A stretch of 46,053 nt of DNA from a virus. Lineage: Duplodnaviria > Heunggongvirae > Uroviricota > Caudoviricetes. Location: the IMG/VR virus record IMGVR_UViG_2541047806_000008; one strand, 5' to 3'. The notes beneath the pieces are model-generated. The model was not told the DNA's origin. It was given only the letters and a program-made list of their open reading frames with translations, and did not search any database. A program made the position numbers and the translations under genes. Positions 3,265 through 40,884 of this stretch are shown here, piece by piece; positions within the stretch are counted from its first letter, which is position 1, and each line of letters begins with the position of its first letter.

Positions 3265-4459
<1,195 letters not shown>

Positions 4460-6350: not shown

Positions 6351-9300
6351 TCAACGGATACTGATACCGGAAGCAGCTTTTTTGGTCACAATCACCGTAC
6401 AGTCTGTGATGTTACCTGCGCCCTGATTGCCTTTCTGGAAAATCTTAAACTCCAGAGTGACGCTTCCCCTGCCACTCGGCATATCAATAACCGCACTGTA
6501 GCTACCGGGAATGGCCCCTTTAGTTTCTCTGGATGCGATTAATACACCGTTTTTGCGAACTTCAAAACCATAACCCGTGTATCTTGTACCTCCCGGGTTA
6601 TTACCACTTCCCGGATCGCTATACGCTATTCCGTTAAAGATAATGGGCGGAATAATGATTTGACGGTCAAAGTTATGATCATCGCTGATGGTGACTGTAA
6701 CCGTCCCGTTTGGTGTTTCCGTATTACCCCACGTACCAGCCTGTTTCGGGAATGATTTGGATACAGCTTTAACGAAGTCACCTCTGACCTGAGTCGCCTC
6801 CAGCATGCCCTTAATCGTACAGTTTTCATTTACCGTGACATTGTTGAGCGTCCCGGCGTTCGCATTCACACTGCCACTGATATCCGCATTTTTAGCGGTC
6901 AGCTTTCCGTCCGGTGTCAGGGAAAATGCCGGTGGATTTCCACCGCTGGTAATGGTGGGGGCCGTCAGGCGTTTCAGGAACACGTCGTTCATGAATATCT
7001 GATCGCCCTGACCAACAAACATCGGTTTTGTGTTGCCATTCGCAGGATTAATCATCGCAATCCTGTCTGCCGCCAGCAGCACCTGACTCTGCATGCCGTC
7101 AGGGGTGTTCTCAATACCGGCACCGATACCCGCAATATAAAGGCGTCCGTCCTGCATCTGCTGCAGCTTCACAGCCCACATGCTGTTCAGGTTATTATTT
7201 GTATCAACCTGAACTTTCTGTATCTGCTGGATCGCTGCACTCTGGTCTTCCAGTTTCTTATTGACGGTCTGTGTGATTTCATTGCTGACATCCGTAATGG
7301 ACGTCCTGATTTCAGCCAGGTCAGGCGCAAGCTGACCGTTATCAATCTGCGTCCACAGCTCCTGGGCCAGATGTGTTTTCCCGATTTCTCCTTTGAAAAA
7401 ATCCAGATAGCCTGATGCATCATCACTCGGCTGACCGACAGCCTCCACGAATGCCGATTTGCCAACGGTGTTCACACTGCGGATATAAAAGTAATAATCA
7501 TGGCCCGGTTTGATATTGATACTGGCGGCTATCCAGTACAGCGCCGTGCCAAGATAGCGTGCTGTGGTTTCAACCTGCCTGATATCCGCAATCCGCTTTT
7601 CCGAGAACCAGAACTCAAACTGTACCGTCGGATCATAAACCGCAAGATGCGGCGTGGCGGTTATCTGAAAATAGCCCGGCGTCAGCTCAATCCGCGACGG
7701 CGCTGCCGGTGCGGCAATCCGGAACGATACCGACGCCGGATCGCCCTGCTGCCCCCACGCATTTACTGCCCGGACTGTCAGCCTGTAGTTCCCCAGCGCC
7801 AGTTGTGTGAAGCGGTAAGTGGTTTCCATCGTCCGGGCCGTGCTGACCAGCCGCTCACTGCCGTCATCCGCTGTTACGGTCAGGCGAAGCATAAAGCTCA
7901 CACCCTTCACCACCTTCGGCGTGTCCCAGCGCGCCAGCACCTGATATTCCCCGCTGTCTGCGGTGACTTCGGCAGTCAGGTGCTGCACCGCTGGCGGCGT
8001 GACACCATTCACCGTGCCGCTCTGGTCGCCGTCAAAGTGCGCCCCGTTATCCACGATGGCTTCTTTTTCCGGTACATGCTGCACGGCGGTGATGGCATAC
8101 GTGCCGTCGTCGTTCTCACGGATACTCACGCAGCGGAACAGGCGCTGGCGCAGCGTCGGCAGCTTCAGCCCCCACACGCTGTATTCAGCAACGCCGTCAG
8201 GAACACGGCTCACTTTCACCTTCACGCCGTCGGTGACGGACTGAACCTCCACGCTGACCGGATTGCCACTTCCGTCAACCAGGCTTATCAGCGTGGTACC
8301 GGAGGATGGCAGCGTGATTTCACGGTCGAGCGTCAGCGTCCGGGTCTGGCTGTTTACCGCCAGCACGCGCCCGCCGATGCTGATACCGGCATAGTCATCA
8401 TCACAGATTTCAATGACATCGCCCGGCACATGGCGAAGCCCTTCTGCGCCCACGCTGAAGTCCACGGTCTGCGTTTCCAGCAGTTCTGTTTTAATCAGCC
8501 ACAGCCCGGCGCGATGTGCCTGCCCCCGGCTGGTACAGCCAAAGGCATCCATCTTCGTGACGTTACGACCGTAACGGGCAATGGCCTGCGTGTCCTCCAC
8601 AAGCTCTGTCGCCGTCTCCCAGCCGTTATTCGGGTCAATCCAGTTCACCTCAACGGCATTATGGCGGTCCTTCAGGGCGCTGAAGCTGTAGCGGAACGGC
8701 GCGCCATCATCCGGCATCACCACATTACTGCGGTTATAGGTCCACACCTTATCTGATGGTCGGTCCTGCACGAACGTCAGCGTCTGCCCGTTCCATACCG
8801 GCATACAGCGCATCGCCGAGCAGAAATCACTGAGCACATCCCACGCCTTGCGCTGTGTGGTCAGGTACGCATTACAGGTGATGCGCGGCTCCGTGCCGCC
8901 AAAGCCGTCCGGCACTGACTGGTCGCAGTACTGGCCGATGACATACAGCGCCCATTTATCCACATCCGCCGCACCAAGACGTTTCCCCATGCCGTAGCGC
9001 GGATGGGTCAGCATATCCCACAGACACCAGGCCATGTTGTTGCTGTATGCCGGTTTAAACGTTCCGTCCCAGATACCGCTGTATTGCCGCGTCTGCGGGT
9101 TATAGTTCGACGGCACCTGCAGAATGCGCCCGCGCAGATGATAATTACGGCTCACCTGCTGGCTGCCGAACTGCTCCGAATCCACCTGCACGCCGACCAG
9201 TGCCGTGTTCGGGTAGCCCTGTTTCACATCGATGATTTCGGTGTATGACGACCAGAGCGTTTTGTTCTGCAGCTGGTCTGTGGTGCTGTCCGGCGTCATC

Positions 9301-11924: not shown

Positions 11925-12253
11925 CAGTTCACCACCTGTTTAAACTCTGCGCTGAACTCAACACGCAGCATACTGACCCGCGACGTCCATTTTGCGCAGA
12001 TCACCTTTATCTGCCGCCAGTCATAAGGCGGCGTCCACAGAAAGGCTTTCCAGCCTCCGTGCTCTGCCAGAAACGATTCCAGCGCCGTGGCCTCCCAACG
12101 GGGGACAGAAAGCGTCACGCTGTACGTTTTCAGGTTGGCATTCAGCCCGGCAGGCGCGCGCTGGGAGTAACCATCACCAAAGCGCACCTCCCTGACGGAA
12201 GGAGTCGAAGCCACATCCATACCCGGTTTCACTTTCCAGCGGAAGGTTTTCAT
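11924..12253 (-). CDS. M: Tail tip protein M
   Basis: 109 aa, lambda gpM length and position. Confidence 0.85.
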   Translation of the reverse strand: MKTFRWKVKPGMDVASTPSVREVRFGDGYSQRAPAGLNANLKTYSVTLSVPRWEATALESFLAEHGGWKAFLWTPPYDWRQIKVICAKWTSRVSMLRVEFSAEFKQVVN

Positions 12254-14805
12254 CGTCCACCTCCGGAGAACAGACCACCATCACGCATCTGCCCGGTCAC
12301 AACATCCATTGCCGCCTTACGGGCTACGTCATAAACCGCCTTCAGCGCCTGTGGCCCTATCTGACCGTTCGTGCCGTCGTTGTTAATCACCACATGGTTA
12401 TTCTGCTCAAACTTCCCGGACGCCTGCGACCGGCTGTCCGCCATGCTGCCCGGTGTACCGACATAACCACCGGTGGCATAGCCGCGCATCAGCCGGTAGA
12501 GATTCCCCACGCCAATCCGGCTGGTTGCCTCCTTCGTGAAGACAAATTCACCGCGGTGAACAATCCCCGCTGGCTCATATTTGCCGCCGGTTCCCGTAAA
12601 TCCTCCGGTTGCAAAATGGAATTTCGCCGCAGCGGCCTGAATGGCTGTACCGCCTGACGCGGACGCGCCGCCACCAACAGCCCCGCCAATGGCGCTGCCG
12701 ATACTCCCGACAATCCCCACCATTGCCTGCTTAAGCAGAATTTCTGTCATCATGGACAGCACGGAACGGGTGAAGCTGCGCCAGTTCTGCTCACTGCCGG
12801 TCAGCATCGCCGCCATATTCTGTGCAATACCATCAAAGGTCTGCGTGGCAGCACTTTTAACCTGCGACATACTGTCCGTGGCGCTCTCTTCCCACTCACT
12901 CCAGCCGGACTTCAGGCCTGCCATCCAGCTCCCGCGAAGCTGGTCTTCAGCCGCCCAGGTCTTTTTCTGCTCTGACATGACGTTATTCAGCGCCAGCGGA
13001 TTATCGCCATACTGTTCCTTCAGGCGCTGTTCCGTGGCTTCCCGCGCTGCCTGCCGGTCAGTCAGCCCCCGTTTTTTTGCATCAATGGCGGCCCGTTTTG
13101 CCCGTTGTTGCTGTGCGAACTTATCCGCCTGCTGCGCCAGCGCGTTCAGGTGCTCCTGATAGGTGACCTTGTCGCCAAGTACAGCCAGCTGGCGTTTGTA
13201 CTCCAGCGTCTCGTCTTTATGCGCCAGCAGGGATTTCTCCTGTGCGGACAGCTGGCGACGTTGTGCCGCCTCCTCCAGTACCGCGAACTGACTTTCCGCC
13301 TTCCACAAATCCCGGCGCTGCTGGCTGATTTTCTCATTCGCTCCGGCATGCTTCTCCAGCGTCCGGAGTTCTGCCTGAAGCGTCAGCAGGGCAGCATGAG
13401 CACTGTCTTCCTGACGATCGCCCGCAGACACCTTCACGCCTTTCGGCTTTTTCAGCGTCGCTTCATAGTCCTTTTTCGCCGCCGCCATCAGCGTGTTGTA
13501 ATCTGCCTGCAGAATTTTCCCGTCCTTCAGTGCCTTGTTCAGTTCTTCCTGACGGGCGGTATATTTCTCCAGCGGCGTCTGCAGCCGTTCGTAAGCCTTC
13601 TGCGCCTCTTCGGTATATTTCAGCCGTGACGCTTCGGTATCGCTCTGCTGCTGCGCATTTTTGTCCTGTTGACTCTGCTGCTCAGCCTTCTTTCGGGCGG
13701 CTTCAAGCGCAAGACGGGCCTTTTCACGATCATCCCAGTAACGCGCCCGCGCTTCATCGTTAACAAAATAATCATCCTTGCGCAGATTCCAGATGTCGTC
13801 TGCTTTCTTAAACGCAGCCTCTGCCTTAATCAGCATCTCCTGAGCGGTATCAGGACGACCAATATCCAGCACCGCATCCCACATGGATTTGAATGCCCGT
13901 GCTGTCCTGTCTGCCCAGGTTTCCAGCGTGCCCATGTTCTCTTTCAGGCGTCGGGTCTGGTCATCAAACCCTTTCGTTGCGGCCTCGTTCGCCGCCTGCA
14001 ATGCCCCGGCTTCATCGCCGGAACGCTGCAACTGAGCAACATACGCAATCTGCTCCGCCGTCACGTTATGGAACTGGCGTGCCATCGCCGTCAGCCCCGA
14101 CGTCGGGTCTGTGGTCAGCTTCCCGAAGGCTTCAGCGACCTTGTCCACCTCCACGCCGGATGCAGAGGAGAAACGCGCCACACTCTGGCTGATGGACGCA
14201 ATCTGAGCCTCACCGCTTACCCCCGCCTTAACCAGTGCGCTGAGTGACTCGCTGGTCTGGTTAAACGTCAGCCCTGCCGCCTGCCCGGCTCTGGACAGGA
14301 CCAGCATACGATCTGCCGTCAGTCCCGCCTGATTGCCGGAAAGGACCAGCGTTTTGTTGAAATCGGACAGGGTTGAGTTGCCCTGATACCAGGCATACGC
14401 CAGCGCTCCGGTCGCCACCGCCAGCGAGGTGGCCCCCACCATCGGCAGGGTGATCGCACCGGCAAGCCCCCGGAACATGGGGATCATCCCGCCGAAGGAG
14501 TCCTTCACCTGCCCCCCCTGTTGCAGCAGGATCAGCCACGGACTTTGCCCGCCTGCAAGCTGCGTGGCCACGTCAGTGAACTGCGCAGGCAGCATACGCA
14601 TGGCGGCTTTATACTGCCCGACGGAAATTCCCGCTTTCTGTGCAGCCAGCGCCTGCCGGTTCATCGACTGTTCAACGACTGCCGCTGTTTTTTTCGCATC
14701 ACTTTCCGTACCGGAAAAATGACGCCTGACTCTGGCCATCTGCTCGTCAAATCTGGCCGCATCCAGACTTAAATCAACGACCAGATCGCCTACCGGTTCA
14801 GCCAT
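12250..14805 (-). CDS. H: Tail tape measure protein H
   Basis: 851-aa ORF, coiled-coil-rich, in lambda gpH position (lambda H is 853 aa as recalled). Confidence 0.9.
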   Translation of the reverse strand: MAEPVGDLVVDLSLDAARFDEQMARVRRHFSGTESDAKKTAAVVEQSMNRQALAAQKAGISVGQYKAAMRMLPAQFTDVATQLAGGQSPWLILLQQGGQVKDSFGGMIPMFRGLAGAITLPMVGATSLAVATGALAYAWYQGNSTLSDFNKTLVLSGNQAGLTADRMLVLSRAGQAAGLTFNQTSESLSALVKAGVSGEAQIASISQSVARFSSASGVEVDKVAEAFGKLTTDPTSGLTAMARQFHNVTAEQIAYVAQLQRSGDEAGALQAANEAATKGFDDQTRRLKENMGTLETWADRTARAFKSMWDAVLDIGRPDTAQEMLIKAEAAFKKADDIWNLRKDDYFVNDEARARYWDDREKARLALEAARKKAEQQSQQDKNAQQQSDTEASRLKYTEEAQKAYERLQTPLEKYTARQEELNKALKDGKILQADYNTLMAAAKKDYEATLKKPKGVKVSAGDRQEDSAHAALLTLQAELRTLEKHAGANEKISQQRRDLWKAESQFAVLEEAAQRRQLSAQEKSLLAHKDETLEYKRQLAVLGDKVTYQEHLNALAQQADKFAQQQRAKRAAIDAKKRGLTDRQAAREATEQRLKEQYGDNPLALNNVMSEQKKTWAAEDQLRGSWMAGLKSGWSEWEESATDSMSQVKSAATQTFDGIAQNMAAMLTGSEQNWRSFTRSVLSMMTEILLKQAMVGIVGSIGSAIGGAVGGGASASGGTAIQAAAAKFHFATGGFTGTGGKYEPAGIVHRGEFVFTKEATSRIGVGNLYRLMRGYATGGYVGTPGSMADSRSQASGKFEQNNHVVINNDGTNGQIGPQALKAVYDVARKAAMDVVTGQMRDGGLFSGGGR

Positions 14806-28496: not shown

Positions 28497-29579
28497 ATGA
28501 AAAAATTAACAGTGGCAATTTCTGCTGTAGCTGCATCAGTACTGATGGCGATGTCTGCTCAGGCAGCTGAAATTTATAATAAAGACAGTAACAAGCTGGA
28601 TCTGTACGGGAAAGTTAATGCTAAGCACTACTTCTCCTCTAATGATGCAGATGATGGTGATACTACTTATGCCCGTCTTGGCTTCAAAGGTGAAACCCAA
28701 ATCAACGATCAACTGACTGGTTTCGGTCAGTGGGAATATGAATTCAAAGGCAACCGCGCTGAATCTCAAGGTTCTTCCAAAGACAAAACCCGTCTTGCAT
28801 TTGCAGGCCTGAAATTTGGTGATTACGGCTCAATCGATTACGGCCGTAACTACGGTGTAGCATACGACATCGGTGCGTGGACTGACGTCCTGCCAGAATT
28901 CGGTGGTGATACCTGGACCCAAACAGATGTGTTCATGACTGGTCGCACTACTGGTGTTGCAACTTATCGTAACAACGACTTCTTTGGTCTGGTCGATGGC
29001 CTGAACTTTGCTGCTCAGTATCAGGGTAAAAATGACCGCACTGACGTAACTGAAGCCAATGGTGATGGTTTCGGTTTCTCCACTACTTATGAGTATGAAG
29101 GATTCGGCGTGGGTGCAACCTATGCTAAATCAGATCGCACTGACGGTCAGGTCGCCTATGGTAAGAGCAAATTCAATGCCTCCGGCAAAAATGCGGAAGT
29201 ATGGGCTGCAGGCCTGAAATATGATGCGAACAATATCTATCTGGCTACCACATATTCTGAAACTCAGAATATGACCGTTTTTGGTAATAACCATATTGCA
29301 AACAAAGCACAAAACTTTGAAGCAGTAGCACAATATCAGTTTGACTTCGGTCTGCGCCCATCTGTTGCTTACCTTCAGTCAAAAGGTAAAGACCTTGGTG
29401 TTCATGGTGACCGAGACTTAGTCAAGTATGTCGATGTCGGTGCTACTTACTACTTTAATAAAAACATGTCCACTTTTGTTGATTACAAAATCAACTTAAT
29501 TGACGATAGTAAGTTTACCAAAACAGCTGGTATTGATACTGATGACATCGTTGCTGTAGGTCTGGTTTACCAGTTCTAA
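28497..29579 (+). CDS. nmpC: Outer membrane porin, NmpC / Lc / OmpD family (cargo gene)
   Basis: 360 aa with signal peptide ([23 protein letters not shown]) and a general-porin sequence ending ...VGLVYQF; uninterrupted here; antisense to the late operon. Confidence 0.85.
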
Positions 29580-31024: not shown

Positions 31025-31187
31025 GATTCCTCCTTGCTGCCAGTCGCAACCATTTTTTATCAACCAAGCTGGCGGTATATCCGAGCAGTGTTGGTATTTC
31101 GGATGGCTTCAGCTCAGGTTTACGCTTACGACGATTTGGTACTCTGTAGATGTGTCCGTTCATGACACGAATAAGCGGTGTAGCCAT
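31017..31187 (-). CDS. ninE: NinE-like protein
   Basis: 56-aa ORF hand-translated ([30 protein letters not shown]...), basic and lambda NinE-like; below the track cutoff. Confidence 0.6.
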   Translation of the reverse strand: MATPLIRVMNGHIYRVPNRRKRKPELKPSEIPTLLGYTASLVDKKWLRLAARRNHG

Positions 31188-31642
31188 TACGCCTCCTGCT
31201 TGTCGCGCAGCAGCTGGAACTCGCAGCTCTGCGGAATAGTCAGGTGGCAGCCAATATTCACCGCCCAGGCTTCAACCTTACACAGGAAGATATACATCTC
31301 TCCGGTATCAAGATCGGAGGTATGGCGTAACGACTGGATAGTGGTGATCTCACCGGTTACGACATCAACCAGGTCTTTGGTTTCATAACCGAGATATGTG
31401 TGTTTGAGAGCATCTTTTACCCAAGCTGGAGTGGCGAACGTTTTACCCCTGCTGATGAGGTATTCACTGATTTCGCTGTACCACATGTGGCTGAGTGCAT
31501 TCTGGGAAAGACTGCGTTTCTCACGCCACGGTTTAAGCACCATGCGAAAGCATTTGCCTTCCTCCAGATAAGGCTGGATCTGCTGGCCGATAGCGGTGAA
31601 GTTACCACGATGCAATTTGATGCCGTCTTGTGGGAGGTTCAC
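31187..31642 (-). CDS. NinB family protein (YbcN-like)
   Basis: 151 aa; pattern [18 protein letters not shown] resembles the lambda NinB core; DLP12 YbcN-like. Confidence 0.7.
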
Positions 31643-31675
31643 GCTTCACCTCCGCAGAGGTCAAACGCTGGATGC

Positions 31676-31760
31676 AAAAAATCGCAGGTGCATCTCTGCA
31701 TCTGTGAAGGGAGAAGAGAGTTTGGATTGTATGTGCGCATAAACGTCCCCGTTTAGCGCA
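31676..31760. repeat. 85-bp direct repeat, copy 1 (partner at 33610-33694)
   Basis: AAAAAATCGCAGGTGCATCTCTGCATCTGTGAAGGGAGAAGAGAGTTTGGATTGTATGTGCGCATAAACGTCCCCGTTTAGCGCA; 80 of 85 positions identical to copy 2. Confidence 0.85.
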
Positions 31761-31836
31761 GAAGTCACCGGAGTTGTTCAAGCTCCAATGGCATGATTAT
31801 GGCTGGTTGATTATTGGAAATCAAATGTGCTGAAAA

Positions 31837-32346
31837 TTAGTCTGCCAAGTCTTCCTCAGTCGCAACTGGGTAATTCCAAATATCAAAAAAAGCTATAGCC
31901 TCCTGCCATTTGCTCCATAAGTTATCAAGTACTTGTGTAGGTTCCGTACTTTTAAAAACAGAATCAGCCGCATCACCGTTATGAACTTCCTCGTACAGTT
32001 CCATTATTAGCAGATTAACAAAGTACTGTTTCAACATTAATGCCTGATTACCTTCTTTCTGCTGGCTATCCTGCTTGATGAGCTCCATCGCCCGTACTAG
32101 GCACCTGATGATATCCGCTGCATCATTAACGCTCCATTCAGATCCGCGCTTATCTTTAGCTGATGAATTGGCTCTCTCAGCGCAAGCCTTTAAAGACTCA
32201 TAAAGGTAAACTCTATTTTGTAGCTGCAGCGCTTTTTTTGACGTGCACCAACTTGCAAGCGCCGACCCCGCTGCGGCTAATGTGCCAAACGCAGAAATGC
32301 CTGCTGCTATTGCACTTAAGTCGGCACTGTCAAAGTTCCACATCAT
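31837..32346 (-). CDS. Hypothetical protein with N-terminal hydrophobic anchor
   Basis: 169 aa; hydrophobic segment LSAIAAGISAFGTLAAAGSALASW then an acidic soluble region; AT-rich gene; no family recognised. Confidence 0.5.
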   Translation of the reverse strand: MMWNFDSADLSAIAAGISAFGTLAAAGSALASWCTSKKALQLQNRVYLYESLKACAERANSSAKDKRGSEWSVNDAADIIRCLVRAMELIKQDSQQKEGNQALMLKQYFVNLLIMELYEEVHNGDAADSVFKSTEPTQVLDNLWSKWQEAIAFFDIWNYPVATEEDLAD

Positions 32347-32520
32347 CGTTACACCTTATATAAACACCCCTCAGTAATATCCAATAAGGTATGTGAACAA
32401 TCAATATAATTTATATCCGTATCGGCACATAGCGATTTTAATGCTACTGATAATGGTATCTTTTAGATTATATCGTCCAGTTCCAGTACCCGTATTTTAT
32501 GAAATGGACTCGCACATTAC

Positions 32521-32562
32521 CAAAAAAAATGCCAGCACTTCCGTCATCGCAGAATGCTGGCA
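32521..32562 (-). terminator. Putative intrinsic terminator downstream of the Bro-N gene
   Basis: Inverted repeat GCCAGCA...TGCTGGC at 32531-32561; on the minus strand it is followed by a run of 8 U (plus-strand A-run 32522-32529). Confidence 0.5.
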
Positions 32563-32581
32563 GTATTTCTAACTAGTGACT

Positions 32582-33190
32582 TTATTGCAACAGATTCTGA
32601 CGGAAATATGGTAACACACGACTCCACTTATCATCCTGCCACGGTTGGAATTTTACATGCGCCGTTTCTCTGGCAAGGATTTCTCGCGCCCTGTTGAGTA
32701 TCCGAGGATATTCTTGTTCGATTGAAGTGAATCTACCTGCTTCGCGATGCTCTGCGACCTGAAGAAGGGGCGTAACGTTCTGGCAGGCGGTTAACATCGT
32801 ATCACTTGCTCGCCATAACCAGGCGAGTGTGCAAAGTTCGTTATCAGTGAATTGTTTTGTGATTGGGGATTGTTGAACTTCTCGATCGAGAATATCCAGA
32901 ACCCAGCGGCGGAATTCTTTGGCCACAGGAGTACGAGCAAACATGGCGATCAAATGGGCTCCGCGAAGGCTAAATACTCGAGACTCCTGCATTCCACGAG
33001 GGGTGGTCACTTTGACCACCCTTGTCATCATATCTGTGAATTCATCTGAGTGCCGAGAGTAAATGCGCTGAACTGCTTTATCGTCCGCATATTCCAGTGC
33101 TAAACCAACTTCAGTGGCAGTAAGCCAAATTCTGTTATTGTGGCAAATCGGGGTAAACGTCGTTTTGTGGAATGCTAATTGAGTAGTCAT
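32582..33190 (-). CDS. Bro-N domain protein (phage antirepressor-like)
   Basis: 202 aa; N-terminal region (FTPICHNNRIWLTATEVGLALEYADDKAVQRIYSRH ... RVFSLRGAHLIAMFARTPVAKEFRRWV) fits the Bro-N / KilA-N-like pattern. Confidence 0.6.
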   Translation of the reverse strand: MTTQLAFHKTTFTPICHNNRIWLTATEVGLALEYADDKAVQRIYSRHSDEFTDMMTRVVKVTTPRGMQESRVFSLRGAHLIAMFARTPVAKEFRRWVLDILDREVQQSPITKQFTDNELCTLAWLWRASDTMLTACQNVTPLLQVAEHREAGRFTSIEQEYPRILNRAREILARETAHVKFQPWQDDKWSRVLPYFRQNLLQ

Positions 33191-33609
33191 AGTATCACCT
33201 CATCAGGTTAACCATCACCACCAACGACGCCAATCGACTGGTGGTGAACTGTGTAAGGTTGGCGTAACCGGCTACTCAAACCCGGCGCTTCCGAAGAAGC
33301 CCTCACACAGCCCACCATAATTTGGGCATAGCCGTGCTTAGCGCACAAAAAAACCGCTTAACGCGGTATGCGTTGAGTAGTATCCCGGGACGCCAATCCC
33401 GTGTGCCGATTTTGCGGCAACGCACAGAATATAGCGCCGGATAAATCATGTCGTCAACCCCAGTAAATGGACACCATGATGATCACATCCATAGCTGCTA
33501 CAACAGTTACAACTACCTCAGGCCAAAACATAACGATTTCCATATCACCTTTAGCCGCCAGACGAATAGAGACTCCCAATTCTGGCTGTCGAAGTAAAAC
33601 ACCGAATGT

Positions 33610-33694
33610 AAAAAATCGTAGGTGCATTTCTGCATCTGTGAATGGAGATGAGAGTTTGGATTGTGTGTGCGCATAAACGTCCCCGTTTAGCGCA
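33610..33694. repeat. 85-bp direct repeat, copy 2 (partner at 31676-31760)
   Basis: AAAAAATCGTAGGTGCATTTCTGCATCTGTGAATGGAGATGAGAGTTTGGATTGTGTGTGCGCATAAACGTCCCCGTTTAGCGCA. Confidence 0.85.
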
Positions 33695-34002
33695 ACCCCA
33701 CCACCGGGTGTTCAGGCCGACAGTAACTATATTATTCCCTACTGATTTTTGAAAATCAAAGGTCTTTATACGTCACACGAGAGCAAATATTTCCGAAGAA
33801 GAAACCTTTCACCTTGAAAGGATAAAGAGTTCATTTCATAAATTGAAATATTCAATAAGAATATTGCAAAAAATGAAATTATTTACTAGCGAGTCTATCT
33901 AACTGATAATTATGAAGATTGTAAGCGGTAGCAATCACCCGCATACACATTGAACAGGATTTAATACAAAACGTCTTAAATTGTCCGTAAGGAATAGCAC
34001 GA

Positions 34003-35505
34003 ATGACTCAAACTCCTCTATTACTTGCAATCATATTTTTATTGGTTGTTCTTGTTCTTTATATAGCTGCAATCAAACGCATCAAAAAAATACAATTAGA
34101 ATTAAGTGATAGCAATCAAAAAAATGAAGAATACAAATCTCGCTTTGCAGATTATTTTAATGTAGAAGAAGAATGTAAGAAGCTTATTGAGAAAACAGAG
34201 CAAGAATGCTCCATAATAAAAGAAGAATCCCTAAAAGTAAAAGAAAATGCCAATAATGAACTAACAAACACCATTGAAAAAATGGATGGTATCAATAAAC
34301 AAATCCAAGAGCTAAGAAGAACTTATAAAGAGAAGAAAGAAATATATGATAAACTAGTAAGGCAAATTTCTATTTATTCAGAAGATGTTGAGCTAGCCGA
34401 ACTAGGATTTTACGAACCTCATTTTAATTTTGAAGATTCAGAGCAATTTAAAAACAAAATAAAATCCATCAGGGATGAACAGAAATTAATGCTGCGGGAT
34501 AAAACCCACTCTGGCGCAGTATATTGTACAACCCAATGGACTGTTGAAGGCTCTCGAGCAGAGGGTAAAAAAATGACAGACAGAAATATCAGGCTAACTA
34601 CTAGAGCATTTAATAATGAATGTGATGCTGCAATTAGCAATTGCACGTGGAAAAACATCACTAAAATGGAAGAACGCATCACAAAGGCATTTGAGGCCAT
34701 AAATAAACTAAACGAGCAAAATCACATATATATAAACACTAAATACCTCAATAAAAAACTTGAGGAATTGTGGCTTACCCATGAATATCGTGAGCAAAAA
34801 CAGAAAGAAAAAGAAGAACAGGCAGAAATAAGGGCACAAATGAGAGAGGAGGAGCGTGCACAACGAGAAATAGAAAAGGCCATGCAAGACGCAGAGGCAG
34901 AAGAGCGCCGTTATAAAAAAGCAATTGAAGCTGCAAGAAAGGAAATGGAAAAAGTTACTGGTGACATGAAGCAGCGCCTCGAAAATCGCATTGCCGAACT
35001 AGAACAGAGTTTGTCGCAGGCTGAATCAAAGCATCAAAGAGCATTATCCATGGCACAACAAACCAAACAAGGTCATGTTTATATTATTTCGAACATAGGT
35101 TCTTTTGGGGAGAATGTTTATAAAATAGGCATGACACGACGTCTTGATCCGCAAGACCGTGTAAATGAGCTCGGTGATGCATCTGTTCCTTTTATTTTTG
35201 ATGTACATGCCATGATTTATTCGGAGGACGCTCCATCATTAGAAAAAAAACTACATGATGTCTTCGATAAAAAGAGAGTCAATCTTGTAAATCGTAGAAA
35301 AGAGTTTTTCTATGTTACTCTGGATGAGATCAAAGAAGCTGTTAAAAAACACTCTGATTCAGAAATTGAATTTATTGAGACAGCAGTCGCAAAAGACTTT
35401 AATGAGTCATTGGCTATTCGTAATCATGAAAATAAAAAAAGTGACAACAGCAACTCATCAATTATACCTGAGCGAAAAACCCCAGAGTTTGCAGATGCAA
35501 TTTAA
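34003..35505 (+). CDS. Membrane-anchored coiled-coil protein with C-terminal T5orf172 / GIY-YIG-like domain (DUF4041-like architecture)
   Basis: 500 aa; N-terminal TM helix (LLLAIIFLLVVLVLYIAAI), long Lys/Glu-rich coiled coil, C-terminal GHVYIISNIGSFGENVYKIGMTRRLDPQDRVNELGDASVPFIFDVHAMIY...; AT-rich; opposite strand to the early operon. Confidence 0.6.
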   Translation: MTQTPLLLAIIFLLVVLVLYIAAIKRIKKIQLELSDSNQKNEEYKSRFADYFNVEEECKKLIEKTEQECSIIKEESLKVKENANNELTNTIEKMDGINKQIQELRRTYKEKKEIYDKLVRQISIYSEDVELAELGFYEPHFNFEDSEQFKNKIKSIRDEQKLMLRDKTHSGAVYCTTQWTVEGSRAEGKKMTDRNIRLTTRAFNNECDAAISNCTWKNITKMEERITKAFEAINKLNEQNHIYINTKYLNKKLEELWLTHEYREQKQKEKEEQAEIRAQMREEERAQREIEKAMQDAEAEERRYKKAIEAARKEMEKVTGDMKQRLENRIAELEQSLSQAESKHQRALSMAQQTKQGHVYIISNIGSFGENVYKIGMTRRLDPQDRVNELGDASVPFIFDVHAMIYSEDAPSLEKKLHDVFDKKRVNLVNRRKEFFYVTLDEIKEAVKKHSDSEIEFIETAVAKDFNESLAIRNHENKKSDNSNSSIIPERKTPEFADAI

Positions 35506-35530
35506 TTAATTTGTAGTAGCAATAAAGCAG

Positions 35531-35560
35531 GCATCGTTGAGAATATTTTGTCAGCGATGC
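35531..35560 (+). terminator. Hairpin downstream of the T5orf172-like gene (possible terminator)
   Basis: GCATCGTTGA ... TCAGCGATGC inverted repeat with one mismatch, followed by TTACTTCTCT. Confidence 0.35.
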
Positions 35561-35753
35561 TTACTTCTCTAACAAAAACGGTGATTACCAACGAACTAAC
35601 GGACTTCAGGTAATCATAAGACAAATGGAACGACTCTCCGGTGATTAGATCCCTGCAATAACAGTAATTTTCTACTAACTGAAAAATCTTTAACTGCCGC
35701 TCCTATTTCTAAGCTGACTGCTAGATTACATGGTGTGTTACCGATGAAAACCG

Positions 35754-36056
35754 TCACAGCAAGTTTAAGTTCATATCTCCATACACTGCCAACACTCGTT
35801 TCATCGCGGCACTCTGGCGACACTCCTTGAAAATCAGATTCGTGCTCACCTTTCCTTCCCGTTCTTCCCTGGTAGCGAACCGGTAATACACCGTTCGCCA
35901 GACCTTACCATCAACGACCAAGATTCCTGCCCGTGCCATTTTAGCCGCAGCCTGATTTATACTGGTTACTGTTGCGCCTGTTACCGCAGCAACGTCCTGC
36001 GCACAGAAGCTCTTATGCGTCCCCAGGTAATGAATAATTGCCTCTTTGCCCGTCAT
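35754..36056 (-). CDS. ren: Ren protein
   Basis: 100 aa; matches lambda Ren as recalled (MTGKEAIIHYLGTHKSFCAQDVAAVTGATVTSINQAAAKMARAGILVVDGKVWRTVYYRFATREEREGK...) except for a divergent C-terminal tail. Confidence 0.8.
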   Translation of the reverse strand: MTGKEAIIHYLGTHKSFCAQDVAAVTGATVTSINQAAAKMARAGILVVDGKVWRTVYYRFATREEREGKVSTNLIFKECRQSAAMKRVLAVYGDMNLNLL

Positions 36057-36754
36057 ACAGTTGCTCCTTTCAGTCCGAACTTCGCTTTGATTTCTGCGAT
36101 CTTCGCCAGAGCCTGTGCACGATTTAGAGGTCTACCGCCCATGACAGGAAGTTGTTTTACTGGTTCAGGTATCGCCTCACCACGGTTAATTCGCGCGGTC
36201 ATACAAGTCAGTTCATCGGCAGCCTTGCGCCGTAATTCCGCATCAGTAAGCGCATTGGCCCGCATGTTCTGATACAGGTTGGTAACCAGCCAGTAGTGCG
36301 CGTTTGATTTCCACGGATAAGACTCTGCATCCGGATACAGGCCACGCTTCCGGCAATACTCGTAAACCATATCAACCAGCTCGCTGGTGTTTGGTAGTCC
36401 GGCAATAACGGATGCTTCTTCCCGGCACCAGGCTACAAACTGTCCGGGGGATGGCAGGAATGGTCGATTCTGCCGACGGGCTACGCGCATTCCTGCGTTA
36501 ACCTGTTCCATCGTGGTGATCCCGTTTTCCCGGAAAGCCAGAACCCACTGGCGGCGGATTTCGTTCAGTTCGTTCTGCTCACGATTAGCCAGGCTCGCCG
36601 GGAAAGTTGCCAGTAACTGGCTGAACACACCGTTGATGATCTGCGCTACCTGCTGTACCTGTGGCTTTTCGTCATACTGTTCCGGCATGTTGTTGGCGAT
36701 CCGACGCATCTGCTCACGGTCAAAGTTAACCATCTGTGCGGCGATGTTTTTCAT
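36053..36754 (-). CDS. P: Replication protein P (helicase loader)
   Basis: 233 aa; near-identical to lambda P as recalled. Confidence 0.9.
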   Translation of the reverse strand: MKNIAAQMVNFDREQMRRIANNMPEQYDEKPQVQQVAQIINGVFSQLLATFPASLANREQNELNEIRRQWVLAFRENGITTMEQVNAGMRVARRQNRPFLPSPGQFVAWCREEASVIAGLPNTSELVDMVYEYCRKRGLYPDAESYPWKSNAHYWLVTNLYQNMRANALTDAELRRKAADELTCMTARINRGEAIPEPVKQLPVMGGRPLNRAQALAKIAEIKAKFGLKGATV

Positions 36755-37680
36755 AGATCCACCCCGTAAATCCAGTCAGTGTTTGTCAGGTCGAGTTTTG
36801 GTTTGCCGACTGTCACGCCAGCCTGTTGCTTGTTCCGGTTGATTTCGAGCTGGGTCCACTTGTCGCGGAGTTTGGCCGGACTCAGCACGTTACCGGACCA
36901 GAAGTTGTCCTGGCAGGCCCAGCGGAACAGCACGCACATGTCGCGGTGGTTACGTCCGTCACGTTCACGCATCAGGCGGATATCGTTAGCCCACCCAGCA
37001 AAATTCGGTTTTCTGGCTGATGGTGCGATAGTCTTCACCATGTCAAACATCCACTCTGCGGCGGTCAGGTCTTCTGCTGTCCCCCACTTGCTGCCGCTCT
37101 GAATTGCAGCATCCGGTTTCACCACAGGAAGATCGTTTTCTGGCTGGTCAGAGGATTCGCCAGAATTCTCGGACGAAAAAGGTTTTATATTGTCTTTTGT
37201 TAGTTTGTCTTTTGTGTTTACCTGATTCGGGTAAACGCCTTTACCTGATTTGGGTAAACTTTTCTTACCTGATTCAGGTAAATTTACCTCTTTCAGGTAA
37301 ACTTTATTTTTCTTACCTGATTCGGGTAATGTTGACCATTCACTGACCACATTATTAATGCCGATATTCCGCCCGCTCTGAATAAGAATCCCACGCTTTA
37401 CCAGAACGCTTTTTGCAGCAGAACACTTGTGCGGCAATATCCCGGTCAATTCGGAAAGTTGCTCGTTGCTCACCCAATCCAGTTTTTTATTAAAGCCATA
37501 TGTTTTGCGCATGACAGCCAGGAAGACCAGAAGCTGGTGCTGTGTTAATCCGGCCAGCATCACAGCTTCCAGCAACTCATTTGCAATGCGCGTATAACCA
37601 TCATCGAGATCTGCCACGCGCGGCTCCTTTTGTGCCGCATCCGGCACTGGAAAATTGAATATCTCAGCAGTGTTTGCCAT
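36751..37680 (-). CDS. O: Replication initiator O
   Basis: Start placed at MANTAEIFNF (ATG 37678-37680, GGGAGG upstream); N-terminal domain lambda O-like (VADLDDGYTRIANELLEA), C-terminal domain lambda O-like; contains the iterons. Confidence 0.85.
   Translation of the reverse strand: MANTAEIFNFPVPDAAQKEPRVADLDDGYTRIANELLEAVMLAGLTQHQLLVFLAVMRKTYGFNKKLDWVSNEQLSELTGILPHKCSAAKSVLVKRGILIQSGRNIGINNVVSEWSTLPESGKKNKVYLKEVNLPESGKKSLPKSGKGVYPNQVNTKDKLTKDNIKPFSSENSGESSDQPENDLPVVKPDAAIQSGSKWGTAEDLTAAEWMFDMVKTIAPSARKPNFAGWANDIRLMRERDGRNHRDMCVLFRWACQDNFWSGNVLSPAKLRDKWTQLEINRNKQQAGVTVGKPKLDLTNTDWIYGVDL
37140..37335. repeat. Replication origin: 4-5 iterons (TTACCTGATTCGGGTAAA-like) with adjacent AT-rich segment, inside O
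   Basis: Iteron copies at about 37216, 37240, 37264, 37284 and 37312; AT-rich stretch at about 37160-37205. Confidence 0.7.
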
Positions 37681-37766
37681 AATTCCTCCCGCAATGAGTG
37701 TGTTACGATTTGCACCTGAAAGTCGGTTCTGTTCCAGCAGACCGGCTTTCGCCATTTCTGAACCTG

Positions 37767-38306
37767 TCATATCGCCCCCAGCATGGTAGTAACCATCGCC
37801 ATCAATGGACCAGCCAGATCTGGGTCCACACGAAACATCGATACAATACCTTCACTAATTTCCTTCAGTTTCTGGTGGCGTGGTGCGTTGAGAATGACAG
37901 CCTGTTTTGCCTCACTGAGTTCCTTTTCCATTTCAGCCAACCTAGCCATGAAGCTATCCTGCTCAACCAGGTAACCGCGATATTCCAGCGGTAGTACCGC
38001 CAGAATTGCCGGGGTCAGTTCACGCACGTTATTTCGGTATTTTTCAGAATCGAATTTGTTATCGAGGAAGCGGAACAGCTTCTGGCGTGCACGGCTGACA
38101 TCATCAGGGAAATCGATGGTGCCGCCGCCCTGCTCCCGATACTCATTCACAATGAGTGTGGCAACGACATCCTGATTATCTACAGCCGACCAGGCGCGGA
38201 CGGCATCACGGATTTTTTCGTGGCCTGGCACCTGTTTTGTTTGAGAACGATTTATCACCGCAGTCGGGCTAAATCCGCTAGTCTGTTGGTATGGAAGTGG
38301 TTGCAT
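37767..38306 (-). CDS. CII-like regulatory protein (longer than lambda CII)
   Basis: 179-aa ORF in the cII position between cro and O; not lambda CII; assignment by position and general resemblance only. Confidence 0.4.
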   Translation of the reverse strand: MQPLPYQQTSGFSPTAVINRSQTKQVPGHEKIRDAVRAWSAVDNQDVVATLIVNEYREQGGGTIDFPDDVSRARQKLFRFLDNKFDSEKYRNNVRELTPAILAVLPLEYRGYLVEQDSFMARLAEMEKELSEAKQAVILNAPRHQKLKEISEGIVSMFRVDPDLAGPLMAMVTTMLGAI

Positions 38307-38606: not shown

Positions 38607-38710
38607 AACAACCTCCGTGGTTAATTTGAATCAAGATTAAAACTATGGTTGTTTTTAGTCAACAACCATTTTCGTTTGATGGAATAAAACCTTGGTTGTA
38701 CATTTGGACT
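38607..38710. promoter_or_regulatory. OR region: pR (minus strand; -35 TTGACT, 17-nt spacer, -10 TAATCT) and operators with GGTTGT/ACAACC half-sites
   Basis: On the minus strand TTGACT-N17-TAATCT (plus coordinates 38635-38662); inverted repeat ATGGTTGTT-N7-AACAACCAT at 38644-38668; further half-sites at about 38607 and 38693. Confidence 0.55.
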
Positions 38711-39400
38711 ATGAAAACAACACTCTCAGAAAGACTTAAAGAAGCCAGATTAGCGCGAGGCCTTACACAAAAGGCGCTTGGGGATTTGGTCGGGGTTAGC
38801 CAGGCTGCTATTCAGAAAATCGAAACAGGGAAAGCTAATCAAACAACTAAAATCGTGGAGATCGCGAACGCTTTGGGTGTGCGCGCAGAATGGTTATCTT
38901 CTGGCGTTGGAAATATGTCAGACAGTACAGTGCAACCAATACAATCAACTGTCAGCCATTCCAAATACTTCAAGATTGACGTTCTTGATATAGAAGTCAG
39001 TGCTGGGCCGGGAGTCATCAACCGTGAGTTTGTAGAAGTTCTACGCTCGGTTGAGTACTCGTTTGACGATGCTCGTCACATGTTCGATGGTAGGAAGGCG
39101 GAAAATATCCGCATCATTAACGTGCGTGGTGACAGCATGTCAGGAACGATCGAACCAGGTGATCTGCTGTTCGTTGATATCACAGTTAAATCTTTCGACG
39201 GTGATGGTATCTATGCGTTTCTGTACGACGACACAGCCCATGTAAAGCGCCTGCAAATGATGAAGGATAAGCTGCTGGTCATCTCTGATAACAAAAGCTA
39301 CTCACCGTGGGACCCGATCGAGAAAGACGAGATGAACCGGGTGTTCATCTTCGGTAAGGTTATTGGGAGCATGCCGCAGACGTACAGGAAGCATGGTTAA
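38711..39400 (+). CDS. CI-type repressor (N-terminal HTH, C-terminal S24 LexA-like autopeptidase)
   Basis: Start placed at MKTTLSERLKEARLARGLTQKALGDLVGVSQAAIQKIE; C-terminal region has the S24-type motifs (VRGDSM ... KRL); the track ORF is extended upstream. Confidence 0.85.
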   Translation: MKTTLSERLKEARLARGLTQKALGDLVGVSQAAIQKIETGKANQTTKIVEIANALGVRAEWLSSGVGNMSDSTVQPIQSTVSHSKYFKIDVLDIEVSAGPGVINREFVEVLRSVEYSFDDARHMFDGRKAENIRIINVRGDSMSGTIEPGDLLFVDITVKSFDGDGIYAFLYDDTAHVKRLQMMKDKLLVISDNKSYSPWDPIEKDEMNRVFIFGKVIGSMPQTYRKHG

Positions 39401-39481: not shown

Positions 39482-39955
39482 ATGGAAAAGCCTAGCTTCC
39501 CACCTCTTCTTACAGCAGGATTTCATGATATGGATAGTGATGGCATCAAGTCTCTTTGTGTCGACACCTTCCCAAAATCCGTTAGAAGAAGTATGCTATA
39601 CTGTAATTTTATACAGCTTATTGAGCAATTTAAACTTGTTAATCAGCAGTGTCTATGTTTCTCTGAAGTGTGGATCGATGGTTCATTCACTACAGAGAAA
39701 CCTGAACCTGATGACATAGATATACTCGTGGTCGTCGATTATTTGGCCCTAAACTCTTTGCCAAACACGCTGATGCCATTGGTCAGCTCATTGTTAAATA
39801 GAGATTTTATTAAAGAAAACTACAGCATTGACGTTCTTTTGCTGCCTGAAAATCATCCAGAAATCGATTATAGTGAAAGGCGAAGTTACTGGAGAGGGTG
39901 GTTTGGTTTTGATCGGAAGGAGAATCCTAAAGGCCTCGTGAGGGTAATGTTATGA
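39482..39955 (+). CDS. Nucleotidyltransferase-fold protein (Pol beta superfamily-like GS...DxD motif), first gene of rex-position operon
   Basis: 157 aa; motif WIDGSFTTEKPEPDDIDILVVVD fits the G[GS]-x9-13-DxD signature; AAGGAC RBS; relatively AT-rich. Confidence 0.45.
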   Translation: MEKPSFPPLLTAGFHDMDSDGIKSLCVDTFPKSVRRSMLYCNFIQLIEQFKLVNQQCLCFSEVWIDGSFTTEKPEPDDIDILVVVDYLALNSLPNTLMPLVSSLLNRDFIKENYSIDVLLLPENHPEIDYSERRSYWRGWFGFDRKENPKGLVRVML

Positions 39956-40884
39956 GCGAAGAAAAAACATTCAACTCCCTCAAGGAGCGAATTGCGTTCA
40001 TTCAACGCGATGTGGATCTGCTTGCTCAAAATAAGGGGAGATCATTTGCTGATGACATTATATTTAGATCACTTGACTCCCATCTGAGCGATCTCCGAGA
40101 GAGACAACGTGCAATCGATAACCAACATCCTTTACGTGATTTCATGGAGTTGAGATTAAAAGGTGTTTTGGTCGATTTCGGGTCTATTCCGTTAGATATT
40201 CTATCTGTAATTTCAGGTAATCTCGCATCCCTTGTACAGAAAGCAGTTTACCGACTTGGATCTGGGAAAGATTCTAGTCGTGTGCCGATTGATGTTAAAA
40301 AATCATTAGACATGAGATTGGCAGACTTGCGTCCAGGTTCGACGAAGTTAGGTGTTACTTTTTCTACTGGTTCTTGCGAGCTCATCGAAACAGTATCCAG
40401 TCATGCTGTTAAGGAGATTTTTGCACTACTCTCATCCATTGATGAAGAAACATTCACGGCTAAAATTGCCGAAATTGGTTCGCAATCAACAGCTAACCTA
40501 AAAAACATCATAAATGAGTGCGAAAAATATAGTCTTAACTTTGATCTTACTTGGATTGGACCTTTAAGTGATGGTACCAGACAAGTGTCAATTTCTTCAG
40601 AAGATATAAAAAAACTGAATGCTCGCTTAGCTTTAACGAAGGTCATTCAGCTACCGGATGAGCATATATCAGGCGAACTTGCTATTTTATCCATGTACGG
40701 GAAATTGGAGATTGCAAGCGAGCTTGGAAAAATAAAGGCTTCTTATCCGATTGATATGTTAGGAGAAATTCAAAGTAAATATAAAGTTGGTGAACGAATA
40801 TCGCTCGTAGTAAGCGTTTCTGAGATTCACAATGAAAGATTAGGAACATCACGACGTAACTACATGGTTAAAAAAATCGAATAG
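39952..40884 (+). CDS. Hypothetical protein (310 aa), second gene of rex-position operon
   Basis: Start ATG overlaps the upstream stop (ATGA at 39952-39955); no TM segment evident; no family recognised. Confidence 0.45.
   Translation: MSEEKTFNSLKERIAFIQRDVDLLAQNKGRSFADDIIFRSLDSHLSDLRERQRAIDNQHPLRDFMELRLKGVLVDFGSIPLDILSVISGNLASLVQKAVYRLGSGKDSSRVPIDVKKSLDMRLADLRPGSTKLGVTFSTGSCELIETVSSHAVKEIFALLSSIDEETFTAKIAEIGSQSTANLKNIINECEKYSLNFDLTWIGPLSDGTRQVSISSEDIKKLNARLALTKVIQLPDEHISGELAILSMYGKLEIASELGKIKASYPIDMLGEIQSKYKVGERISLVVSVSEIHNERLGTSRRNYMVKKIE

Follow-up and report, generated by a model that had tools for sequence, protein, structure and literature searches.

Vassallo et al. (2022, Nat Microbiol, PMC9519451) found the anti-phage system PD-λ-1 in ECOR26 as a gene of 1,503 nt on contig QOXL01000020 (positions 49060-50562). 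The published clone includes flanking DNA of 62 bp at one end of the gene and of 282 bp at its other end, and the supplement of that study gives DUF4041 (residues 197-252), T5orf172 (357-448), and MUG113 (373-449) as HHpred domains of the protein. The system was renamed SNIPE and characterised by Saxton et al. (2026, Nature, PMC13190303), who describe a constitutive, inner-membrane-anchored GIY-YIG nuclease and show its localisation and topology experimentally. Deletion of the transmembrane (TM) helix leads to a highly toxic protein that cuts the chromosome, and the E414A variant loses both toxicity and defence. The DUF4041 domain aids DNA binding and can be crosslinked to the tape measure protein. 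Before infection, SNIPE is located near the mannose permease ManYZ, and during infection it is near gpH, the λ tape measure protein, and labelled λ DNA is cut during injection in the presence of SNIPE. Infected SNIPE cells survive and grow, as seen in time-lapse microscopy and high-MOI growth curves, unlike those of the abortive-infection control PD-λ-3; the induction of prophages is not affected. The system acts on ManYZ-dependent λ-like phages and, more weakly, on most siphoviruses of the BASEL collection, with no protection against myoviruses or podoviruses (all PMC13190303).

Several other systems show partial similarities to SNIPE. Zorya and Kiwa likewise work at the inner membrane while phage DNA is entering, and Zorya has been proposed to cleave DNA. 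In contrast to SNIPE, which is one protein and binds directly to ManYZ and to the tape measure protein, both are multi-gene systems sensing perturbation of the envelope, and they have no domains in common with it (PADLOC gave no such matches). The superinfection-exclusion morons of the HK97 gp15 type (references 38-39 of PMC13190303) are also prophage-encoded, single-gene entry blocks in the inner membrane directed against related siphoviruses. Their dependence on the tape measure protein and on a component of a sugar-PTS permease (PtsG) is a further parallel. These morons block entry without a nuclease, whereas SNIPE destroys the entering DNA. The free-standing T5orf172/GIY-YIG homing endonucleases (I-TevI-like enzymes and the T5orf172 family of ICP1) share the catalytic domain family T5orf172/MUG113. 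SNIPE differs from them in being membrane anchored, in carrying DUF4041 and no sequence-specific DNA-binding extension, and in its function, which is defence.

Identification of the locus as SNIPE

The stretch of DNA analysed here, 46,053 nt in length and called the window in the following, is a lambdoid prophage in which λ-type tail genes are combined with a nin-Q region of the phage-82/DLP12 type. Its open reading frame at 34003-35505 on the plus strand (500 aa; ATG start at 34003, stop codon at 35503-35505) is almost certainly SNIPE (PD-λ-1), a gene for anti-phage defence, which together with its own promoter region and hairpin forms a self-contained piece of cargo in the variable spot between ren and ybcN. 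PADLOC assigns the gene to PD-Lambda-1, with an E value of 1.9e-198 for PDLC03976 (positions 1-485 of the 491-position profile) and 7e-195 for PDLC03977. The protein is identical at 500/500 residues to the product of a coding sequence annotated "PD-lambda-1" in Escherichia phage PhiR26_1 (PV340555.1). On the DNA level, positions 33200-36060 show 99.9% identity to this phage, and a single base, 33811, differs between 33591 and 35780. Each of the nine residues that the SNIPE paper names is present at the matching position (E414, E223, N250, L253, W257, E264, K305, I308, and T319). Gene length and domain coordinates equal those of the ECOR26 protein RCP76574.1; the two are tied together by the annotation of PhiR26_1, by this agreement in length and coordinates, and by the nine residues in common.

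The system is already known: it has been named and mechanistically dissected, is contained in PADLOC and Pfam, and is annotated in GenBank and RefSeq. The gene names in RefSeq are "DUF4041 domain-containing protein" and "SNIPE associated domain-containing protein", and the current Pfam name of PF13250 is SNIPE. Compared with the described system, the copy in the window shows the same length of 500 aa, the same order of TM segment, helix, DUF4041, helix, and T5orf172/GIY-YIG domain, and the same lambdoid prophage context. Nothing differs in the protein, and the one deviating base lies upstream of the gene. The window is nevertheless a different mosaic prophage from PhiR26_1, with 97.4% identity over 73% of positions 22000-46053, another repressor, and, next to this repressor, a PDC-M63-like gene pair. 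When the literature was searched for phages of the ΦR panel under GenBank-style names, only unrelated papers on Pseudomonas phage and on physics were returned.

A preliminary description, made from the letters of the window, had correctly recognised a real defence gene and the way it is built. The additions of the present analysis are contextual and comprise the exact boundaries of the cassette, the cargo hotspot between ren and ybcN, the doubling of the orf33 leader, and the carrier's own tape measure protein, which is of the SNIPE-sensitive type.

Gene organisation and signals

The preliminary description placed an AT-rich reading frame of 500 aa opposite the early-right operon, preceded by about 300 bp of non-coding DNA with a good ribosome-binding site and followed by a hairpin; all of these statements hold. 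The neighbouring genes O (36751-37770), P (36053-36754), ren (35754-36056), and ninB/ybcN (31187-31642) are all located on the minus strand, as are those for a Rha/Ant-like protein (32582-33190) and a 169-aa protein (31837-32346). The cassette has a GC content of 0.351, compared to 0.508 for the ren-P-O segment and 0.499 for the whole window. The AT-rich region upstream of the gene (33695-34002, plus strand; GC 0.347) comprises 308 bp in which no credible open reading frame was found. It contains the ribosome-binding site AAGGA at 33989-33993, 9 nt 5' of the ATG, and a candidate sigma-70 promoter, TTTACT-17-GATAAT, at 33882-33910, whose match to the consensus at 9 of 12 positions does not count as evidence that it functions.

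The hairpin on the plus strand (35529-35562) begins 24 nt past the stop codon and is followed by TTACTTCT. For the 86-nt stretch, a folding energy of -22.9 kcal/mol was obtained, with a z value of -4.15, and none of 200 shuffled sequences reached this stability. A strict terminator scan did not call the hairpin; it is probably a transcription terminator.

A terminator-like hairpin on the minus strand, CCTTTCAAGGTGAAAGG with a T-rich tail, is located at 33805-33821 inside the upstream region of SNIPE, and base 33811, the sole difference from PhiR26_1 within the cassette, lies in it. This hairpin could serve as a stop for early-right transcription reading antisense through SNIPE.

Protein architecture and nuclease domain

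The N-terminal membrane anchor described for SNIPE is also predicted for the protein of the window. A hydrophobic segment covers residues ∼4-24 (nt 34012-34074), the best 19-mer starts at residue 6 with a mean Kyte-Doolittle value of 3.37, and 56 of 57 homologues contain an N-terminal hydrophobic segment. This is the single TM helix that had been noticed at the outset, and the T5orf172-like C-terminal segment proposed there and the DUF4041 domain named there for a profile search are equally borne out by Pfam. DUF4041 (PF13250) matches residues 198-252 (nt 34594-34758) with an E value of 1.2e-19 and 70.4 bits, against a cut-off of 27. T5orf172 matches residues 357-449 (nt 35071-35349; E 6.9e-17), and MUG113 matches residues 373-449 (E 7e-19), both above the curated cut-offs. 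The proposal of a coiled coil of about 300 residues needs correction. In an AlphaFold2 model based on an alignment (mean pLDDT of 77.9), long helical segments cover residues ∼4-125 and ∼246-355, but these do not make up one plain coiled coil, as a compact DUF4041 domain (∼150-260, pLDDT of ≥90) lies between them. A model calculated from the single sequence reached a mean pLDDT of 55.8, with values below 50 in the nuclease domain, and was unusable.

The alignment of homologues consists of 57 sequences with 50-57% identity. Invariant residues in it include G357, H358, Y360, K374, G376, R379, R380, E414, N427, N430, and E434, and position 373 is conservatively substituted (Y/F). Judged from the sequence, Y360, Y/F373, G376, R379, E414 (codon GAA at 35242-35244), N427, and N430 would map onto the canonical GIY-YIG motifs. 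The assignment to the GIY-YIG fold is made because of the T5orf172 and MUG113 matches, the β-β-α-β-α order in the model, and the HHpred, AlphaFold3, and E414A results of the original authors. Neither the 161 C-terminal residues nor the family profile gave a significant match in sequence searches of the PDB, and hhalign comparisons of this profile, which is of low diversity (Neff of 2.5), with the GIY-YIG domains of UvrC and I-TevI were not significant, with probabilities of 0.6% and 0.1%, respectively. Fold searches with the full-length model were dominated by helical matches, and a search of the protein against NCBIfam returned nothing but sub-threshold coiled-coil noise.

In a large protein collection, at least 8,000 clusters were matched at an E value of ≤1e-5. 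The sequence of the window protein itself is present there in a 975-member cluster and on at least 1,000 contigs. Among the matches listed, the closest relatives outside E. coli (Vibrio, Shewanella, and other Enterobacterales) are ∼50-57% identical, and all of these contain the same three Pfam domains.

Boundaries and distribution of the cassette

The limits of the inserted segment had been placed at 33695-35560, and comparison across genomes gives a shared minimal unit of 33695-35564, in close agreement. On the left, the homology common to all other contexts starts at 33606/33695, and the edge of the cassette adjoins an orf33-ybcN leader of the phage-82 type. This leader, which in phage 82 is normally found 5' of orf151/ybcN, is present twice in the window. 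The copy next to SNIPE (33591-33694, minus strand) is the second copy of a 104-nt direct repeat and is 89% identical to positions 31657-31760. A derivation of the repeat from ninE was considered and rejected; ninE lies 3' of ybcN, and the repeat corresponds to the phage-82 leader 5' of orf151/ybcN. On the right, the hairpin at 35529-35562 marks the edge of the minimal shared cassette. It is followed by a junction segment (35565-35773) that reaches to the start of λ-type ren homology and is found only where the cassette adjoins ren.

The junction segment encodes the last seven, non-λ codons of Ren. The ren gene (35754-36056, minus strand; stop codon at 35754-35756) encodes a Ren-like exclusion protein of 100 aa (phrog_142, E 5.5e-42) with a replaced tail, ending in VLAVYG-DMNLNLL in place of VLAVYG-VKR in λ. 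The homology to λ DNA ends at position 35774 of the window, corresponding to λ 40562, 8 nt before the stop codon of λ ren. Both the unusual tail and the replacement of the 3' end of ren by the insertion had been anticipated in the preliminary description.

SNIPE remains attached to the orf33-ybcN leader in every context examined, and the other side varies between ren, an HD-domain gene, and a second nin region. In SB0258h1, the order is ren, SNIPE, and orf33-ybcN, with a single copy of the leader joining SNIPE to ybcN. A single leader copy is also found in EcPNK006, a remnant prophage near argU/fimZ, where SNIPE is joined directly to ybcN; an HD-domain gene takes the place of ren, and the shared DNA ends at window position 35564. 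In another locus (L014), SNIPE comes after a whole second nin region. In L010, an IS5 element (7755-8771) is inserted between SNIPE and ren at a target site corresponding to window positions 35721-35724. The 515-aa HD-domain protein that adjoins SNIPE in EcPNK006 (L007, 7171-8718) may be another defence gene. In a further genome (hit H34), the SNIPE gene itself is interrupted by IS5.

Between the two leader copies of the window lies a second cargo module (31761-33590, minus strand), separate from SNIPE and without a PADLOC match. It encodes the Rha/Ant-like protein (32582-33190) with Bro-N and P22_AR_C domains and is present in both the window and PhiR26_1. The second protein of the module, the 169-aa product of 31837-32346, matches phrog_1779 over its full length and shows a hydrophobic, Ala/Gly-rich N-terminal stretch; it gave no Pfam or PADLOC match. 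The position of this module between two orf33 leaders would fit a recombination event between the leaders of distinct phages.

The SNIPE gene is accessory and not core, in line with its first description as cargo. Of 153 records in a phage collection with a match to the ren-side flank, only one contains the gene. The spot between ren and ybcN contains other cargo in related phages, namely, an acyltransferase and a lipoprotein in PhiR30_1 and ybcK/L/M in PhiR34_1. λ has only 73 bp at this position, and SNIPE is absent from λ and most relatives. Among complete E. coli genomes, the cassette is found in 131 of 5,426, always on the chromosome.

Probable mode of action and alternative readings

The mechanism was published for the identical protein, and we infer that it applies to the copy in the window. 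SNIPE would here be produced constitutively, and its N-terminal helix would hold it in the inner membrane, with both DUF4041 and the nuclease domain facing the cytoplasm; this anchoring would keep the nuclease off the chromosome. Before infection, the protein would associate with ManYZ, and the GIY-YIG-type domain with the catalytic residue E414 would cut the phage genome during injection. The infected cell would survive, making this a direct defence, and the resident prophage would be unharmed on induction. Expression from the native promoter in the lysogen is assumed from plasmid experiments, in which the cloned fragment defends from its own promoter (PMC13190303).

The preliminary description had left a choice between exclusion and abortive infection by a nuclease and had named a homing-type element as an alternative. 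Single-gene exclusion stands, given the identity to PD-λ-1/SNIPE. In an abortive-infection system, infection would free the nuclease onto the host DNA, and the cell would die to protect the population. The high toxicity of the protein without its TM helix, which cuts host DNA (PMC13190303), would fit such a toxic nuclease, as would the fact that many T5orf172/GIY-YIG proteins are non-specific nucleases. Cells with the identical protein survive infection at high MOI, however, and the phage DNA is cut during injection (PMC13190303), which makes this part of the original proposal extremely improbable. A selfish homing element, whose free-standing endonuclease would cleave the ren-ybcN junction of lambdoid genomes lacking SNIPE and insert a copy of its gene there, is also extremely unlikely. 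According to PMC10448857, T5orf172-type genes are often found at the boundaries of genetic exchange in phages, and the presence/absence polymorphism of SNIPE at one junction with sharp boundaries would agree with homing. The protein is, however, anchored in the membrane, and Pfam finds only DUF4041, T5orf172, and MUG113 in it and no sequence-specific DNA-binding module. Defence depends on ManYZ or the tape measure protein rather than on a target sequence (PMC13190303). The unrelated cargo at the same spot in relatives and the variable right-hand neighbours of SNIPE, an HD-domain protein and a second nin region among them, fit a recombination hotspot rather than homing.

Another reading takes the intact gene as a silent or decaying passenger that is unexpressed or non-functional in this prophage, for example, through convergent early-right transcription. 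The gene is antisense to pR-driven transcription, its sole promoter candidate is the 9/12 match described above, and copies disrupted by IS5 occur in other genomes. Against this, pR is repressed in the lysogen, so that no interference would arise in the state in which defence matters, and the cloned fragment is active from the native promoter. The near-complete identity to PhiR26_1 over 33591-35780 is likewise at odds with decay, and 110 of 132 matching complete genomes contain a copy that is at least 99% identical with an intact reading frame, which argues for purifying selection. We regard a silent passenger as very unlikely, and a functional, membrane-anchored exclusion nuclease remains the preferred reading.

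Carrier prophage and possible exclusion of related phages

The window's tape measure protein (12250-14805, minus strand) is 97% identical to λ gpH. Residue A304 is kept, and just two substitutions are found in residues 300-400, the region of gpH linked to ManYZ dependence and SNIPE sensitivity (PMC13190303). Because this protein resembles gpH so closely, the carrier phage belongs to the clade that is excluded by its own cargo, and the main natural targets of SNIPE are therefore probably other, heteroimmune λ-like phages. From these comparisons, SNIPE can tentatively be viewed as a discrete mobile unit of ∼1.87 kb, built of promoter, gene, and hairpin, whose main role may be the exclusion of heteroimmune kin entering by the ManYZ route, including the carrier's own progeny. 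We give this view somewhat less than an even chance. If true, SNIPE would be an instrument of competition between prophages and not of general host defence.

The prophage contains further genes of interest. Directly 3' of a cI-like repressor gene (38645-39400), in the position of λ rexAB, lie two genes on the plus strand (39482-40884) that encode a DUF6932 protein of 157 aa and a protein of 310 aa without a Pfam match. The pair matches the PADLOC candidate system PDC-M63A/B with E values of 7e-43 and 4e-42 and, on the strength of these profile matches, may be a second, uncharacterised defence cargo of the same prophage. An IS5-family transposase gene (DDE_Tnp_1 and DUF772; 3297-4313, plus strand) lies within the tail-fibre end, an insertion that may have made the prophage defective in its side tail fibres or host range. 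Between Q and the lysis genes, another cargo gene (28497-29579, plus strand) is found on the strand opposite to the late operon. It encodes a general porin of 360 aa (Porin_1, E 2e-151), which is OmpD/OmpC-like according to the annotation in related phages.
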